From: Xylographa opegraphella
Taxonomy: Eukaryota
Direction: 5' to 3'
DNA: 64,000 bases
Assembly: GCA_022813865.1 (NCBI GenBank)
Contig: JALDZX010000008.1
Location: 248,001 to 312,000, forward strand
This document shows, piece after piece, positions 11,964 to 27,626 of this stretch; position 1 is the stretch's first letter, and each line of letters starts with the position of its first letter. A program made the position numbers and the translations under genes. Below the pieces are notes generated by a model. The model did no database searches and was not told the DNA's origin. It worked only from the letters and a program-made list of their open reading frames with translations.

Positions 11964-13046
11964 TCACACCTCATCCATCTGCCCCGCCGGCTCCTCGTCC
12001 CCGGAGTCGAAGCTGCCGACGGAGCTCATCTCGTCGTCGGACTCGCTGTCGTTGCCGGCTTCATCGGCCGCTTCCTTGGTGGCGTATTTGGAGACATACT
12101 CTGCCGGCCCGGCTCAGCCTACTGTTCTCGTGGTGGAGGTACCTACTGGCCTAGCACGTACCTTTGACCTTTGCGTCGTAGCTTTTCGGCTCTCGCATCA
12201 GGAGCGCGGCCGCTTCCCCGTTCAGGGGGTCGGTCGGGTTCGGGTAGCGCAGGAGCTGCGGGAGGAAGACTTCGAAGATGTTGATCATGTCGAACATGGG
12301 CGACCAGGTCTGGTTGATGACGTCCAGGCATACGGAGCCCGATCTTTTGCGCGCAATGGTCAGATTATCTGTATGGGGGACGGCGGGGCTGAAGGAAAAG
12401 GCGGACAACTCATCGATGTTGGGGTGGAAGATGCGGTTCACGAAGCCGATGCTGGGGCTTTTGTATGGGTATTGGTCCGGGAGCTCGACGTGGACTCGCC
12501 ACAGTCCGCCTTGGAAAGGCGCTGTGCTTTACGTTAGCAAGGGTTTTTGGCGTGTGTTTCTGGGGGGCTGGCGTACTCTCATCGGGCCCCTTGAAGCGGA
12601 CGTAGAACTCTTGCCTGATTCGTGGTCAATTCTATTCTAGCGCTCGGCCAGTGCGGTAGGGTTTTGTATACACTGCAGGCAGTCTTAGTACTTCCAAACG
12701 AGATGACTGGTACGTATGAGGTGCGCAAGTGATGGCTTGGCTGATACGCACTATTGTCATTAACCAGTGTCACTTCATAATCGCTCATCAGCCTGTATGT
12801 GATCCCATCAGTTACCGTCCTTAGGTTCCAATCCCCGGTCATGTCCGGTGTCGGTAGAGGTCGAGGCATTGACGTACATCCTATGGCATTGTTAATAGAG
12901 TCCTCGCGCTTTCTAGGGGATAACATACTTCATGACCTGAGTGCCGATACCGTGTCAGCTTCTTGAACAATATAGAAGTTCCACCTTGATCTGCCAAACT
13001 GCGGTCAACTTACATCTGTCTCGATCCTCCTCTTGGGACTGCTCAT
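11964..13046 (-). CDS. UBC8: Ubiquitin-conjugating enzyme E2, Ubc8/UBE2H (GID/CTLH E2)
   Basis: Exons 13046-13014, 12936-12929 (8 nt), 12880-12878 (3 nt), 12792-12752, 12672 (1 nt), 12614-12577, 12521-12407, 12343 to about 12162 and about 12100-11964. They give [39 protein letters not shown]...[24 protein letters not shown]...YPNPTDPLN followed by an acidic tail. Confidence 0.95.
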
Positions 13047-14813: not shown

Positions 14814-16992
14814 CTAGTAGTTCTCCGGCAAGCCACTAAAGCTAGGCACCGTTTGGGTACAATTGAAGTCGCGATCCCACACCTTGGCGGGCAAGATGCC
14901 CGCTTGCATGCCCAGTTTCCAGCTCCACTGCACGGCGCTCTCCGTCTGCCACGTCCAGTAGAACCAGCCCCAGCCGATCTCGAAGCTCGTCATCTGCGCC
15001 TCGGCGTTCATCATCAGCCACTGCTTGTAGGTGTCGCTGTAGTCGCTCGGGTCGGCGTTGGCGTCGGCGCACTTGCACGTGCCGCTGTTGGGGGGGCAGG
15101 ACGGGGTGAGGATGCTACCGGCCGAGGGCGCGGAGCCGAGGTTCATGTTGCCCGCCCAGCGGGAGCCGACGCCGACGTTGTTGAGGTATTGGGTGCAGTC
15201 GGTGTCTGCTTGGGACCATTCGCCGCAGAGGGTGGGGCCGTAGCTGAGGTGGGGAGTTAGTGTATGGTTATAATTGGTGAGAGATGAAGAGAGGAGAGAG
15301 AACTAACCCCGTGGCGACATCGATGCTCTGTTTCATCTGCGCGCTCCACCCGGAACATGCGAAGTTGATCTTGGTCTGGTGCGTGAATGCAATCTGCTGC
15401 ACGTTGAAAATGACATATTGATGCGCGTCCATCACCAGGCCCTCGATGCCTTGCAGCTTCCCTTGCCAATTGGGAAGGCCGAGAAAGCCATCTCCGAATG
15501 CGATGGTCTGCTTGATACCGTTCTGACGTGCCGTACTGACCACCGTGGTCGTCCAGTCAAGCACGGGCTGGATGGGAAGGAGCGTCATTCTGGGCTCATT
15601 CAGGAGCCCGTAGATCCCAATGACGTTGTTGTATCGTGGCTGAGCGAAGAAGGTGGACAGCTGGTTGTGGATGTCAAGTGACCGCTGCGCATTGAGCGCT
15701 CCGTCCGTGCCATTGATCCATCCGATTGCGCCTTGTCGGCCGCTATGATTCCATCCATTCTGACTTCCTGGCACGGCGTGGAGGTCCAGATTCACGCGGA
15801 GGCCGTACTTGCGCGCGTACTCAATCCCGCGGAGCAGATATCGCCAAGATATCTTGGGGACATAGGGGTCTCCGGGGTAGGTTGTGACAGCCCAGTACGA
15901 GTAAGGTATCCGCACGTGGTCAAAGCCGGCCGCCTGGATGTCTGCAAAAGTCTGCTCGTTGACGAAGCTCGAATAGTGCTTCTCGATTGTCTGCGCTGCC
16001 CCTGCGGCGCCGAGATGCTGCGACAATGTGTATTCGTCGACAATGCCCAGATTCGAATCGTACGAGTTAAAGAGACTTGGAGTGATGAACGGTTCGAGTG
16101 AAAGCCAGCCTCCTATGTTGACCCCTCGGATTGGCATTTGGCCGTAGTTGAACTTTTGGTTCAAAGGAGGCACATATTGATTTGCTTGCGTGGAATCGTT
16201 CCATGTTGAATTCAATCCCATGATCGGCAACCCTCCGAAGGTCTCATTTGTGTATGAAACATTGAAATTCTGAGTATCGTACCATGTAAAGGGGTCCAGG
16301 TAACTTCCCCTGGCCGCTACTGGGATGTCGTTCTCACTGGTGCCATTCAGATTGGAGTTGTTGGGTGGTCCAGTTGCAGTTGATCCGGCCTGTGCAGAAC
16401 CACTGGCGCTGTTTTGCTTCCCAATAACCAAAACCCCGACCGGAATCAATATAATCAATACCAGCACAAGGAACCCGATCGATATCCAACATATCCGTTT
16501 TCGTCTTCCGTTATCTTCTGAATTCAAGGATGCTACGTAACCTCCCCTCCGCCCTCTGCCTTCTTCCAGAATTGCGCCGCTGACTATTCTTCTGCTCTTC
16601 CGCTTTTCCCTTTTCTCATCGTCCTCGTCGTCACGCCGCCGGTGTTTCCCTCGCTCCTTCAGCACTCTTCCGGTCACCACTTTTTCCTTCTTCTCTCTCG
16701 CCACAGCCCGTTCACGCTCGCTAATCTGCACCTTCTCGTTGAGCGCATTGAGTTTCGCTAAAGAATCGATGCTCAGGACATTGGTAGATGTTTGCGACGA
16801 GGAATAGCCGTCTTTAGATCTTTCGTTGGTTCTCGAACTGCGCTTTGCGGCGCCTTGCGCTTTCTTAGGGCTGTTCGACTTCCTTCCTTCGCCAGACTTT
16901 CGCACAGGTCTTTCGGCAGGAGTATCACCGGATATCGGGCGACTGCGGGATTTTGGCTTGGTTGTTGTTCGCTCTTTGTGAGGACCAGCCAT
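14814..16992 (-). CDS. exgD: Membrane-anchored glucan 1,3-beta-glucosidase, GH5 (ExgD-type)
   Basis: First ATG at 16992. A charged cytosolic N-terminus and one TM segment (WISIGFLVLVLIILIPVGVLVI) precede IRGVNIGGWLSLEPFITPS, HVRIP, DLHAVPGSQNGWNHSG, LLNEP (acid/base), intron 15307-15244, CGEWS (nucleophile) and GWFYWTW. Confidence 0.9.
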
Positions 16993-17589
16993 TGGTGTTG
17001 ATTTACGCAACGATTGGAATGCGTAGGAATTTCATGCGGCAGAAAAATCAACGAAGTCTATCGGTTTAGAGTATCACAACTTTACGAAGAATTATGCGAA
17101 ATGTGATGATGGGTCTGGAATGTCGAACTCGTAATCGCTGGTTTCAATGTGGACAATCGATGGGGTAGCACCAGGCAACGAGCGACCAATAAGAATAGTT
17201 GCATCACACAACGAGCACCTAAGAATGAAGTCTTCGGAACACAAACCACAAATAATAATGAGACGCAGTCTTAGAACAGCGAGTGATAAACATGATGATA
17301 TAGATGTGTGGCCTGATTGAGGAGGGGCGGATGATAAGAAACAGCTGCGCCTGCCCATCACTGTGACCTGCGACAAGCGCAACCAACTTCGCGTTCAGTA
17401 AATTAGTACCGTGTTCGATTGCCCGCAACGAGCAATGCTGCAGTACTCTTGAGCCATCAATTGAGATAGTCATAGGTTGCCCGTAACAGATCATGCATAC
17501 CTGGAGCGAAACATCTTTGTAGTTCACAATTCATCTCTCAATTCTCACACCTGCGTGTGAAATCCTCCAGCGCAAGGCTGAATCTAATC

Positions 17590-24432: not shown

Positions 24433-25110
24433 GCTCTTGATCTGGGGTTTCTTCGGGAAATTCGACCTTGCGAAGTCGAAGATGACAGCCAGCCACGTAA
24501 TGCGAAGATAACTAATTCCATTGCGAGCCCGAGTGACGCCGGAGTGTTATTAATACTAAGCTCGTGATGGTGAGTGCGCCGGATTATGAGGTACGATTTT
24601 TATGTTTTCTGGCGTTCGAAAAGCATCCGTGCGACCGACCGAGGTTGAGCAGCCTCGGGCCGAGGATATTCCACCTTGTATAGCGCAGCCCGATGGTGCA
24701 GAAACCAAACAACTCAAATTCAAATACCGAGATAGGCTCCCATTTCACAAAGGGTCAGCAGTGGCACGTCGCTTTGCCAGTCAATACAAACGTACAATCA
24801 CGGTGGATCCTAGACTCCGCGTGGCGTCTGAGGTCGTATAACGCATTCCCTAAACAAATCTTTCAATACATCATTCAATGGACTAAATCTGGGGTTTTTA
24901 TTTCGACAGCAATTGTCCGTACACAGCTATATGTACTGAACACTAAAGAAAACCCTTCATGAGATTATTTCTATTTTCCTTTCCACAAGCTAAGAAACCT
25001 TCATTATAGCCATTCTGACAATGACAGCCACATATCGGGATTGTTATATACTACAGCCATAGCAAAAAGAATCTGTCATATTTGGATATGACCTTATCAA
25101 TACTCGCATT

Positions 25111-26885
25111 TCAAAACACATGGCACATATGGAGCCTGCCACAAAATGTTAGAAATAATGCATTGAATTACTCCGAATATGGAAGTATACCAGTCCTCGA
25201 TATCCTCCTTACGCTCCAGAATCTCGGCAGCCAAGATCGCTTGTGGAATCCTCATTGAGCTGCCGATGAATTTGAGACGATTCACAATCCATAGACGAAG
25301 TGAATCCGGAGAGTCTGGCAGCCCTCCCGCTATGAATAGAGGCCAGAGAAGGAGATACCCCCCAGCGGCCCCGATAGGGGGAGCCTGCCCATCGAACTCA
25401 CCGGACTGCGTCGCTTTAGATAACAGCCAAGAATATGCGGGTGACCTCCATTCCAAGGACTTGACAAAAAATGGCGCCGGACATTGAGTAATCTGAGGTA
25501 CACTGGCGCATATTTCAGATGACATCTGCGAAATAGTGGATTCAGAGAGCTGTAAGAGTGCGATATAATCCGATGAGAATTGCCCAATCGGTGCGGAGGA
25601 TATACGCTGTAGAATCTGTCCACTGATGATGCGGCCAAGAAAAATACGAGCCATGCGGAGAGAATTCCACATCTGCGATATTCGGTGGTTTCCATATAAG
25701 TGATAGTGTCCCTTATAGACCAGTACGGGCTCCGTGTCCATGTATATGGTTTTCATACTCCCATGTGGATGGTAAAGTGGTTGTCCAGTCGATCATATCA
25801 CTATCAATTTTCATAGCGGCGGCGATGAAGGCGCCGACATCAGAAAGACTGCCATCTTTAATTGATGCACGGAGACCAGCGAATCGGACTGTTACGTCCG
25901 AAAATCGCCACGCTGGGCTGCTTCCAACTATGTTCTTAAAAGCATAACTGCGAAGGTCAGTTATTTCTGCGGGCACATAGATTTCGCGTTGTATGCAGCT
26001 CACGATGATGTTATCGGTCATTTGTTTGAACATTTAAAGACCGAGGGATGACCTCAACTGCTGGCGGCCGCGAAGAGTGACGAGCACCGTGGCACCTTTG
26101 ATGTGGTCAGTCCAGGATGTCAAAGGCTTCTGTGTTGTGGATGTAATCGTCTCATACAAGCTGAGTAGCATAACTGCAAGGAGGGCGCTATCTTTTGTTG
26201 CTTCAGTTGACGATCGTAGAGCTGTGTTTGTCAATTGAAGAGCATATACATACTGCCTCCTGGCTTGCTTGAACACATGTTGAGATTGGTACTCATTCGC
26301 GAAGCTGGCAAGGCCTACAGCATAGATGATTGCTGAGAGATGCTCATCCATGCATGACTGACTGAACAGCGAGGGCAGATATTCGAAATGGCTGCCAAGG
26401 ACATTAGATGAGAGGAAGAAACACACCGCCTGTGCTTCGATTGACTGCATCACGCTTCGTGGAAGCTCTACTGGCCTTATGTCAAGCTGATCTTTGCTCA
26501 TTCTGAGCATACCGGATCTCTCCAAGCTTGAGGTTAGGAAATCTCGCGGTGATTGTCGTCCTCCATCTGAAACAGCTAGCGCTCTTTTTCGCTTCGATGG
26601 TTCCCACGAATCTGCTTTGGTAATTACTGCTTCAGTCTGGTCGCGGAAGCTTCCTTCCAGAGGAGACCGATAGCCGCGGCACTGCTCTTTCCTCCTTATA
26701 CACTGGGTACAACCTGGCCTTAATTGATCGCACTGTCATTGATTTAGCGGCTAACGCGAGAAAACACAAGACACGCAAGCCAATAGATTTCTCATCTCAA
26801 CATGTGGAGCGGATTTGTTTTGCACCTTTGTCCTTAGCTCTCTACAGCTCTTACACGCTTTTGATGGCTTCCCACAATACACCAT
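25111..26885 (-). pseudogene. Zn(II)2Cys6 transcription factor gene disrupted by a nonsense codon and a frameshift
   Basis: MVYCGKPSKACKSCRELRTK|CDQLRPGCTQCIRRKEQCRGY is an intact C6 cluster (intron 26825-26733). There is an in-frame TAA at 26036-26034 (SLGL*MFKQ) and a frameshift near the A-run at 25753-25750 (WEYE/TIYMDTE). The last intron is 25190-25136 and the frame ends DWLHMCHVF*. Confidence 0.8.
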
Positions 26886-27626
26886 GCCGCCAAGACAGCG
26901 GTAATAATCTAGTTGTGACGATGGGAAAGGTGCTCGAGCCAAGGAGTCGGATACATGCACTTAGACAATGCTTGACAGACAATAATAGTGGGACGAGCTT
27001 GATAAGGTGTACAGCGTATCAGAAGCCTTTATGGCGGTCGTTCTTCTGGTAACTTCCCAGCTTTAAGCTTGGCAACACGTCCAAAAATATTTGACAATGA
27101 TTTCAACAGTGGTGAATCGGCGGTGTGAAGACGAGGATATCCAGAGCAAGTTGCTAGGCCTATCCTGGATCTTACACGATTCCGTCCACTAACCATGCTG
27201 CATTCCTCATAAGTTTGCGGGGTACGAGCTGCTGTCACGCCATGTCGATTTCCTTTTGTTGTCCATAGCCCAAGTATTCGGAGTTTCAGGTGGTAAACCC
27301 GTAACCCTAAACAAACGGAGGACCTCTCCGCCGTTAGACTGGAAGATACCCTGCGCAGAGGTAAAAGTAAACACGAACACGGATAGCGAAGATTTAACGC
27401 GGAAACTACCTACGTATGCCGTATAATGTACCCATGCTTACAGAGTAACGCTTCAAGTACAATAACAACTCTGTCAAGTATGTATGCAACACATGTATTC
27501 ATTTCTATGCTCGTGGGCTAGAGCTTGTGGCCTCTAGTCAATGTCTTCACTCACATTGTACATGTTCGATCCTGAAGTCATACATGAGCTTTGTGCTTGA
27601 TTTCTGCTGTTGTGAATGGGCACAGT

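Follow-up and report, generated by a model that had tools for sequence, protein, structure and literature searches.

Can a single nucleotide serve as an exon in a conserved housekeeping gene? This question is raised by a locus in Xylographa opegraphella, for which we analysed a stretch of 64,000 nucleotides (nt) of genomic DNA (assembly GCA_022813865.1, contig JALDZX010000008.1, positions 248,001 to 312,000 of the forward strand; in the following "the window", in whose numbering all positions are given). Its minus strand carries a gene for a ubiquitin-conjugating enzyme (E2) of the UBC8 type. According to a preliminary description of the locus, made from the letters alone, two complete introns of this gene are separated by just one base, T12672, and the coordinates and letters given there for this base and for both flanking introns were reproduced without any deviation. 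The exon before them ends, on the minus strand, with ..ATGACAATA (12760-12752). It is followed by intron A (GTGCGT...TACTAAG..GGAAGTACTAAGACTGCCTGCAG, with the acceptor CTGCAG; 12751-12673, 79 nt), the single T, intron B (GTATAC...TTGACC..GAATTGACCACGAATCAG, with the acceptor AATCAG; 12671-12615, 57 nt) and exon 6, which opens with GCAAGAGTTCTACGT at 12614. We consider it probable (about 0.88), judged from this sequence and its relatives, that T12672 is spliced into the messenger RNA (mRNA) as a constitutive one-base exon.

The argument depends on knowing the protein. The gene is, by all sequence comparisons made here, an orthologue of the UBC8/UBE2H-type E2s, as had been proposed for it before; homologues, the domain PF00179 and the alignment to yeast Ubc8 support this assignment. 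The UQ_con domain (PF00179) was found with E=2.7e-28 in the open reading frame (ORF) 12151-12528 on the minus strand and with E=1.1e-39 in P0057, an orthologue known from a transcript, whose N-terminal stretch is the same. In the spliced protein the HPN motif is followed by the active-site cysteine, whose role in E2s is general knowledge, and an acidic C-terminal tail is present. Among the best homologues, at least 120 in number, the best named ones are labelled "UBC8" or "E2 H". P0057 matches yeast Ubc8 (chain 8pmq_E) with 7e-72 and human UBE2H with 6e-67, and other E2s with approximately 1e-27. The consensus of the orthologous transcripts equals the N-terminal part of the window protein and aligns without gaps to residues 1-178 of the solved yeast chain 8pmq_E. 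This chain reads ..LINDSMQEFHV.. at the critical place, so that the yeast motif DSMQEF, given in the preliminary description, is correct.

If T12672 is included, the resulting ATG encodes Met29 in ..LVNDN-M-QEFYV.., the mRNA reads ..LVNDNMQEFYVRF.. and the frame stays open for the full 185 amino acids; the spliced model then consists of nine coding exons, which add up to a coding sequence of 558 nt (Table 1). Skipping of the T leads to a frameshift (NDNSKSSTSAS.. and a subsequent stop), whereas retention of intron B leads to an in-frame stop. These outcomes, and also the peptide NDNSAQEF for the use of an alternative donor GTATCA, had been anticipated in the preliminary description and were obtained again by translation of the spliced models. 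We then listed all GT..AG combinations in 12792-12577 whose introns measure 40 nt or more; in models with two introns, inner exons of 1-30 nt were allowed. Of the 59 open in-frame models (20 with one intron, 39 with two) just one, the one-base-exon model, yields the conserved peptide LVNDN-M-QEFYV. The same is true for one of 300 models when GC donors are also allowed. Since only one of the 59 open in-frame models restores the conserved peptide, the single-base exon goes beyond chance. The lone base is flanked by two complete GT..branch..AG introns of normal size (79 and 57 nt), both within the range of 48-85 nt spanned by the other six introns of this gene; a merged intron consisting of A, T and B would measure 137 nt and would be the longest of the gene as well as out of frame. 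The phases of the flanking exons differ by one base, and only the inclusion of this base restores the conserved protein. At the peptide level, moreover, the arrangement AG-N-GT is conserved among orthologues (P0241, 14 of 14 spanning translations, P0072 and P0014, all described below). The junction expected with the T spliced in is GACAATATGCAAGAG; GACAATAGCAAGAG and GACAATAGTGCGCAAGAG would be junctions lacking it.

To look for conservation of such an arrangement in other fungi, we used as query the stop-to-stop ORF 12579-12929 (minus strand), which runs through intron 3, exon 4, intron A, the T, intron B and on into exon 6 without a change of frame. A protein collection contained P0241 from a close relative, the translation of an unspliced genomic contig of 175 kb, which aligns to this ORF over 115 residues without a gap and with 64% identity. 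The lack of gaps means that the introns and exons have the same lengths in both. The peptide of exon 4 is the same, while the interiors of the introns have diverged. P0241 does keep the splice signals: branch site and acceptor of intron A are followed by the T and by the GT that opens intron B (..FG[S/N]TKT[A/I]-C-S-V.., that is ACTAAGACT..TGC AGT GTn), and the branch site and acceptor of B are retained as well (..ELTTNQ-A.., that is GAATTGACCACGAATCAG followed by G). Its donor of B reads GTnCAy and likewise has no G at position +5.

Altogether, 24 unspliced ORF-type translations were found with the window ORF. All 24 show NDN-S, equivalent to AAT A/GT (a slash between bases marks a splice boundary), and the next residue (K in seven, A in six, T in six, E in three, R and M in one each) is always compatible with A/GT[AG]N... 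The R in front of LMSDYE, which corresponds to the AG/G of intron 3, is present in 22 of the 24. Exon 6 is reached by 14 translations, and each of these has the AG/G-CAA boundary, visible as R-QEF, [Q/K]-ARVLR or G[K/R]SS depending on the frame. Thus, in every spanning translation a phase-1 donor faces a phase-2 acceptor. The interval between the two is 103-164 nt, or approximately two intron lengths. A peptide-compatible AG-T-GT that leaves at least 40 nt on both sides exists in at least one place in 14 out of 14, typically as ..C-S-V-S.., ..R-S-V-R.., ..A-V-Y-A.. or ..R-Q-C-E... When residues were shuffled (500 trials per sequence), 4-80% of the shuffled sequences passed this test, and the product over the 14 sequences is approximately 1e-7. 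Two further sequences, found in the search for homologues, conform to this. In the contig translation P0014 the compatible site is ..C-S-V-C.. with 46 nt in the first part. In the public model P0072 of Parastagonospora nodorum SN15 the entire interval of 103 nt is read as coding, and there is one candidate, ..L-Q-C-P.., equivalent to CAG/T/GT, with parts of 47 and 55 nt. The cross-species conservation of AG-T-GT, for which the preliminary description had called, is therefore found at the level of translations.

Transcripts lead to the same base. Complementary DNA contigs of other species carry the junction of exon 4, T and exon 6. A partly spliced metatranscriptome transcript of another species, L014, has lost introns 1, 2, 3, A, 6 and 8 but kept B and 7. 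It reads ..GTTAACGACAATA-T-GTACGTCC..(57 nt)..AAAATAG-GCAGGAGTTC (GACAATA-T-GTACGT..GCAGGAG) and has an in-frame stop inside B; one of the splicing intermediates predicted earlier for the Xylographa gene (AATA/T-GT..) is thus seen in a different species. For a relative of this species an unspliced genomic ORF, P0004, is available, which has a homologous intron B (..P-PED..F..W-IG-R..). There, intron B is preceded not by exon 4 but by ..A-L-S-V-C.. (CTy AGT GTn TGy). From P0004 and L014 together it follows that in this lineage the DNA reads ..AG/T/GT.. and the RNA exon 4-T.

A different kind of marker comes from genomes in which the two introns do not exist. We scanned metagenomes and metatranscriptomes with the patterns ND[NS]MQEF and RRIE[TM]DVM, which returned 80 loci, mostly spliced or without introns. 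A contiguous AAY or AGY, ATG, CAR or CGC, GAR is present in 76 of the 80 (66 with AAY or AGY, ATG, CAR and GAR, plus 10 of 13 missed by this motif, some with CGC for CAR), and three (L049, L053 and L057) are unreadable at this site. In seven genomic loci (L054, L055, L068, L073, L077, L078 and L080) the stretch (G)TTG or CTC ATG..GAC AAC or AAT ATG CAR GAR TTC..GAA or GAG A is uninterrupted. This exon is 80 nt long, which equals 41+1+38, and it ends at the position of intron 6 of the window. An acceptor at the position of intron 3 is present in all seven, and the whole of intron 3, with its donor after ..AAG AT, is seen in L054, L055, L077 and L078. Introns A and B are precisely absent from these seven loci and the T is in place. 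Such a precise absence is as expected from loss through a spliced copy, or from a paired gain elsewhere. The UBC8 genes of these seven loci have introns only at the positions of introns 3 and 6, with one more further downstream in L077 and L078. The four introns which create the exons of 8, 3 and 1 nt are all missing there. We also scanned contigs of prokaryote genomes for stray fungal UBC8 sequences and obtained 98 pattern matches, among which there was no relative. The arrangement with both introns is apparently common to many Pezizomycotina, whereas other lineages apparently lost both, or never gained them, and kept the T.

Could the locus be spliced in a simpler way? A single intron of 133 nt, from the alternative donor GTATCA (12747) to the acceptor at 12615, is open and in frame, needs one splicing event only and would produce NDN-SA-QEF through the junction AATAGTGCGCAAGAG, without any one-base exon. 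Yet this donor has neither G at +5 nor T at +6, both of which are present in GTGCGT four bases upstream, and the product would be one residue longer and lose the methionine found in 76 of the 80 loci and in yeast Ubc8. An intron of this size would also far exceed the others of the gene (48-85 nt) and would not require the internal TACTAAG..CAG/T/GT that is kept in P0241; we regard this structure as very improbable. Still more so is an intron of 142 nt from GTGCGT (12751) to an AG inside exon 6 (12610). This model is open and in frame too, and joins of its type have been drawn in two public models (P0095 from Phyllachora maydis and P0081 from Lizonia empirigonia), although these are predictions and not transcripts. 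It would yield NDN-K-FYVRF, two residues shorter and without ATGCAAGAG, and would hence delete the conserved M-Q-E and bypass the good pair of branch site and acceptor, TTGAC..AATCAG. The simplest splice pattern of all, one ordinary intron of 137 nt without the T, appears in three public annotations and would need a faulty assembly, a sequencing error or a gene in decay to account for the broken frame. But the remaining exons are all intact and highly conserved, P0241 has the same lengths without any insertion or deletion, and the phase mismatch recurs in 14 out of 14 independent contigs, which errors cannot explain. This possibility is hardly credible.

More weight, even if still unlikely, has the idea that the one-base exon is real but facultative and that a sizeable share of messages with the T skipped or B retained would tune the output of Ubc8 via nonsense-mediated decay. 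Both aberrant forms would carry early stops, the weak donor GTATAC of B has counterparts without G at +5 in P0241 (GTnCAy) and P0246 (GTnTAy), so that the weakness may be kept, and L014 retains B in another species. One metatranscriptome contig with B retained is, however, expected from ordinary splicing intermediates, and the donor of B in L014 itself is a strong GTACGT. Two related structures were considered and rejected. In recursive splicing, juxtaposed AG/GT ratchet points occur in long animal introns. The resulting zero-length exons resemble the UBC8 site in the practically fused acceptor and donor and in stepwise splicing, but no base is retained and the introns are very long, compared with 57-79 nt here; the locus reads AG-T-GT and the T is required in the product. 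In a stwintron, by definition, an internal intron splits one of the splice signals (donor, branch site or acceptor) of an external intron, so that this signal is formed only once the internal intron has been excised (PMC5639578). Stwintrons share with our case two touching U2 introns, consecutive splicing and occurrence in Pezizomycotina. In the stwintrons so described nothing between the introns stays in the mRNA, whereas in UBC8 both introns have their own signals intact in the DNA and one base is kept.

Several points weigh against a constitutive one-base exon at T12672. No RNA sequencing runs of this organism were listed in our search, so the support is comparative, and the closest transcript contig among the 80 metagenome and metatranscriptome loci has only about 79% nucleotide identity to the coding sequence of the window. 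The contiguity of the ATG in these loci is partly by construction, as the scan itself used ND[NS]MQEF; the 76 of 80 therefore show only that such mRNAs are common. The AG-T-GT test on translations is loose, with a single sequence passing by chance in 4-80% of cases. With the exception of L014 and the metagenome loci, the cross-species support consists of protein translations that are compatible with AG-T-GT and not of DNA that reads it, and the contigs behind the 24 translations are taxonomically unassigned. The donor GTATAC of intron B has neither the usual G at +5 nor T at +6 and, counted by hand, matches the U1 consensus at only about four of nine positions. Among public gene models, there are those reading NDN-S..xV-QEF and those reading NDN-M[Y/F/L/S]..; either class, viewed separately, could also be explained by a single intron in the species concerned. 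Two others, P0111 from Pseudocercospora fijiensis and P0116 from Thermochaetoides thermophila, read NDN-SM-QEF, which is one residue longer than all transcripts seen; their local gene structure may differ, or they may be mispredicted in another way. Finally, for the order of splicing there is a single intermediate, which comes from another species.

How would such an exon be spliced? Introns A and B would be ordinary short U2-type introns one base apart, exon 4 ending on the first base (A) and exon 6 beginning on the third base (G) of a codon which the T completes to ATG. Their removal would take two successive reactions of the ordinary spliceosome, each by intron definition. The donor region recognized by U1 and U6 pairing extends from -3 to +6. 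Because this region of intron B overlaps the acceptor AG of intron A, two spliceosomes could hardly act here simultaneously. After the first excision the T would be either the last base of an exon of 42 nt or the first base of one of 39 nt, and the second reaction would be an ordinary one. If the T were skipped, a frameshifted message with an early stop would result. We lean slightly, on weak evidence, towards removal of A before B, since A has the better donor (GTGCGT compared to GTATAC) and is transcribed first, and since in the only intermediate seen A is gone and B present.

The same place causes difficulties in public gene models. Of the best 120 homologues, 54 contain the peptide of exon 4; NDN-M-QEF is found in 15 of them, and the other 39 deviate. 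In three (Bipolaris maydis, Lasiodiplodia theobromae and Hyaloscypha finlandica) the donor of A is joined to the acceptor of B and the frame is lost (NDN-S[K/R]SS..). Four read into A and out of B (NDN-S...R-QEF). Five have NDN-S...xV-QEF with x being L, T or A, as expected for ..yAG/T/G., and nine have NDN-M plus another residue, in eight cases Y, F, L or S, which have codons starting with T, followed in six of the nine by V (GTnnGT). The remaining models have NDN-S in other contexts (11) or something else after NDN (7). As proof of twin introns the NDN-S...xV-QEF and NDN-M classes were rejected; they are consistent with such introns, yet each alone fits a single intron. Among named species the phase mismatch is found in Dothideomycetes and Leotiomycetes, and consistent models exist in Sordariomycetes and Lecanoromycetes. 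In public UBC8 models of Fusarium spp. (P0048, P0099 and P0119) exon 4 or exon 6 is skipped entirely, which suggests the same hard-to-predict structure there. The 39 deviating models include well-studied plant pathogens and Fusarium, the genus of the claimed first fungal one-base exon. A simple rule, namely to seek AG-N-GT wherever a phase-1 donor faces a phase-2 acceptor over about two intron lengths, would repair the UBC8 models.

One-base exons had been called very rare in the preliminary description. This is still fair, though examples from plants and fungi have been published. Guo & Liu (2015, PMC4674806) describe a single-nucleotide exon in APC11 of Arabidopsis thaliana. As in UBC8, one base lies there between two complete spliceosomal introns; the reading frame depends on it constitutively, the gene is a conserved housekeeping one from the ubiquitin system, and annotation had missed the exon. 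Unlike UBC8, it concerns a plant and a different gene, and it has evidence from reverse transcription polymerase chain reaction and reporters (PMC4674806), whereas our case is comparative. The one-nucleotide exon in the P450 gene CYP621A of Fusarium was inferred with read support, and its authors count it as the second case, and the first from a fungus (Nelson & Syed 2026, PMC12940212). It shares with UBC8 the occurrence in Pezizomycotina, the mismatch of phase 1 and phase 2, the conserved AG-N-GT, an interval of about twice the usual intron length and the use of an intron-less relative to gauge the length, for which L054 and L077 serve here. As presented there, the base in CYP621A is a G (AGGGT), which fits both splice consensuses, whereas the T in UBC8 (AGTGT) fits neither exon-side consensus; CYP621A is also a rarely expressed gene in one genus, while UBC8 encodes a housekeeping E2 with signs of the exon in several classes. 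For the basidiomycete Coprinopsis cinerea a genome-wide list based on long-read annotation contains thirteen exons of 1 nt; this work shows that exons of 1-3 nt are processed routinely by fungal spliceosomes and that their omission breaks gene models (PMC12230235).

In open-access PMC and bioRxiv (main texts) we found no report on the intron structure of UBC8 or on a micro-exon in fungal UBC8 genes. T12672 of UBC8 is apparently a new and widely conserved addition to a known, very small class. It is about an even chance that the AG-T-GT exon and the adjoining exon of 3 nt are ancient, that is, were present before Lecanoromycetes, Dothideomycetes, Leotiomycetes and Sordariomycetes separated, and have persisted in this housekeeping gene over hundreds of millions of years, with most public Pezizomycotina models being wrong there. 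If so, this would be the most widely conserved one-base exon known. A T that fits neither exon-side consensus, paired in some lineages with a persistently weak downstream donor, would then suggest that an ordered, hand-over-like splicing, first of A and then of B on the fresh ligation, is built in and possibly regulatory. A constitutive, highly expressed and conserved one-base exon in tractable relatives would be a substrate for studying how the spliceosome orders overlapping acceptor and donor sites, whether a weak second donor is tolerated on a just-ligated exon, and what mistakes cost. Lineages with the uninterrupted exon of 80 nt can be compared with those that carry both introns, which makes UBC8 well suited to the study of paired intron gain or loss.

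Table 1. Exons and introns of the spliced UBC8 model in the window, in the order of transcription
Feature	Positions	Strand	Basis
Exon 1, 33 nt; ATG 13046-13044	13014..13046	-	Spliced model; length of N-terminus same as in yeast Ubc8, via orthologue P0057
Intron 1, 77 nt; GTAAGT..CAG	12937..13013	-	Spliced model
Exon 2, 8 nt; GTCATGAA	12929..12936	-	Spliced model; required for ..DVMK..
Intron 2, 48 nt; GTATGT..TAG (..CCATAG)	12881..12928	-	Spliced model
Exon 3, 3 nt; GAT, completes K (AA+G) and starts M (AT+G)	12878..12880	-	Spliced model, relatives
Intron 3, 85 nt; GTACGT..CAG	12793..12877	-	Model; position also occupied in L054, L055, L077, L078
Exon 4, 41 nt; G CTG ATG ... GAC AAT A, ends in codon phase 1	12752..12792	-	Sequence and model
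Intron A, 79 nt; donor GTGCGT 12751-12746, branch-like TACTAAG 12690-12684, acceptor CTGCAG	12673..12751	-	Branch and acceptor region kept in P0241
Exon 5, 1 nt (predicted); T, middle base of the Met codon A-T-G	12672	-	Model enumeration and relatives
Intron B, 57 nt; weak donor GTATAC 12671-12666, branch-like TTGAC 12629-12625, acceptor AATCAG	12615..12671	-	ELTTNQ kept in P0241
Exon 6, 38 nt; G CAA GAG TTC ... GAG A, starts in phase 2	12577..12614	-	Sequence and model
Intron 6, 55 nt; GTACGC..GCTAAC..CAG	12522..12576	-	Model; position also occupied in L054, L055, L077, L078
Exon 7, 115 nt	12407..12521	-	Model, homologues, PF00179
Intron 7, 63 nt; unusual donor GTCCGC 12406-12401, in frame and stop-free	12344..12406	-	Model; homologous intron retained in transcript L014
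Exon 8, 182 nt; catalytic Cys in SGSVCLDV	12162..12343	-	Model, PF00179
Intron 8, 61 nt; GTACGT..CAG	12101..12161	-	Spliced model
Exon 9, 137 nt coding including stop; acidic tail	11964..12100	-	Model; coding sequence of 558 nt

Other parts of the gene are unusual as well (Table 1). If exon 3 with its 3 nt is omitted, the protein reads VMK-LMSDY, which is one residue shorter than the transcript consensus VMKMLMSDY. This exon is kept in the relative P0241 (..Q-G-C-T.., that is CAG/GAT/GTACG), and P0249 reads Q-D-V. The methionine to which it contributes is missing from several public models, for example P0041, P0042, P0067, P0074, P0079, P0091, P0097 and P0099. ORF-type gene calls read straight through intron 7, as it is in frame and free of stops. 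The predicted RNA fold of 12600-12770 (minus strand) has -36.8 kcal/mol compared with a mean of -37.8 for shuffled sequences (z = 0.27) and gives no sign of a structure bridging the site.

At 25190, where the preliminary description had placed another GTATAC donor, the motif is present, but the minus-strand ORF also remains open across it, down to a stop at 25097. We have therefore rejected this site as support for the donor of intron B. The palindromic GTATAC occurs 11 times in the window compared with 6.3 expected, a number which was reached in one of 100 shuffles. The ORF belongs to a gene for a transcription factor of the Zn2Cys6 type (25097-26960, minus strand; ..CKSCRELRTKV.., ..QCDQLRPGCTQCIRRKEQCRGY..), near the 3' end of which 25190-25136 is a possible intron of 55 nt (GTATAC..TTCTAAC..GGCAG), with the frame also open through it. 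Closer to UBC8, an uninterrupted ORF of 587 amino acids (15268-17031, minus strand) encodes a GH5 enzyme (PF00150), some relatives of which are named glucan 1,3-beta-glucosidase; it places the window in the lichen-forming Lecanoromycetes, in Baeomycetales or nearby. Its best named matches are from Xylographa soralifera (90% identity) and Lambiella insularis (80%).

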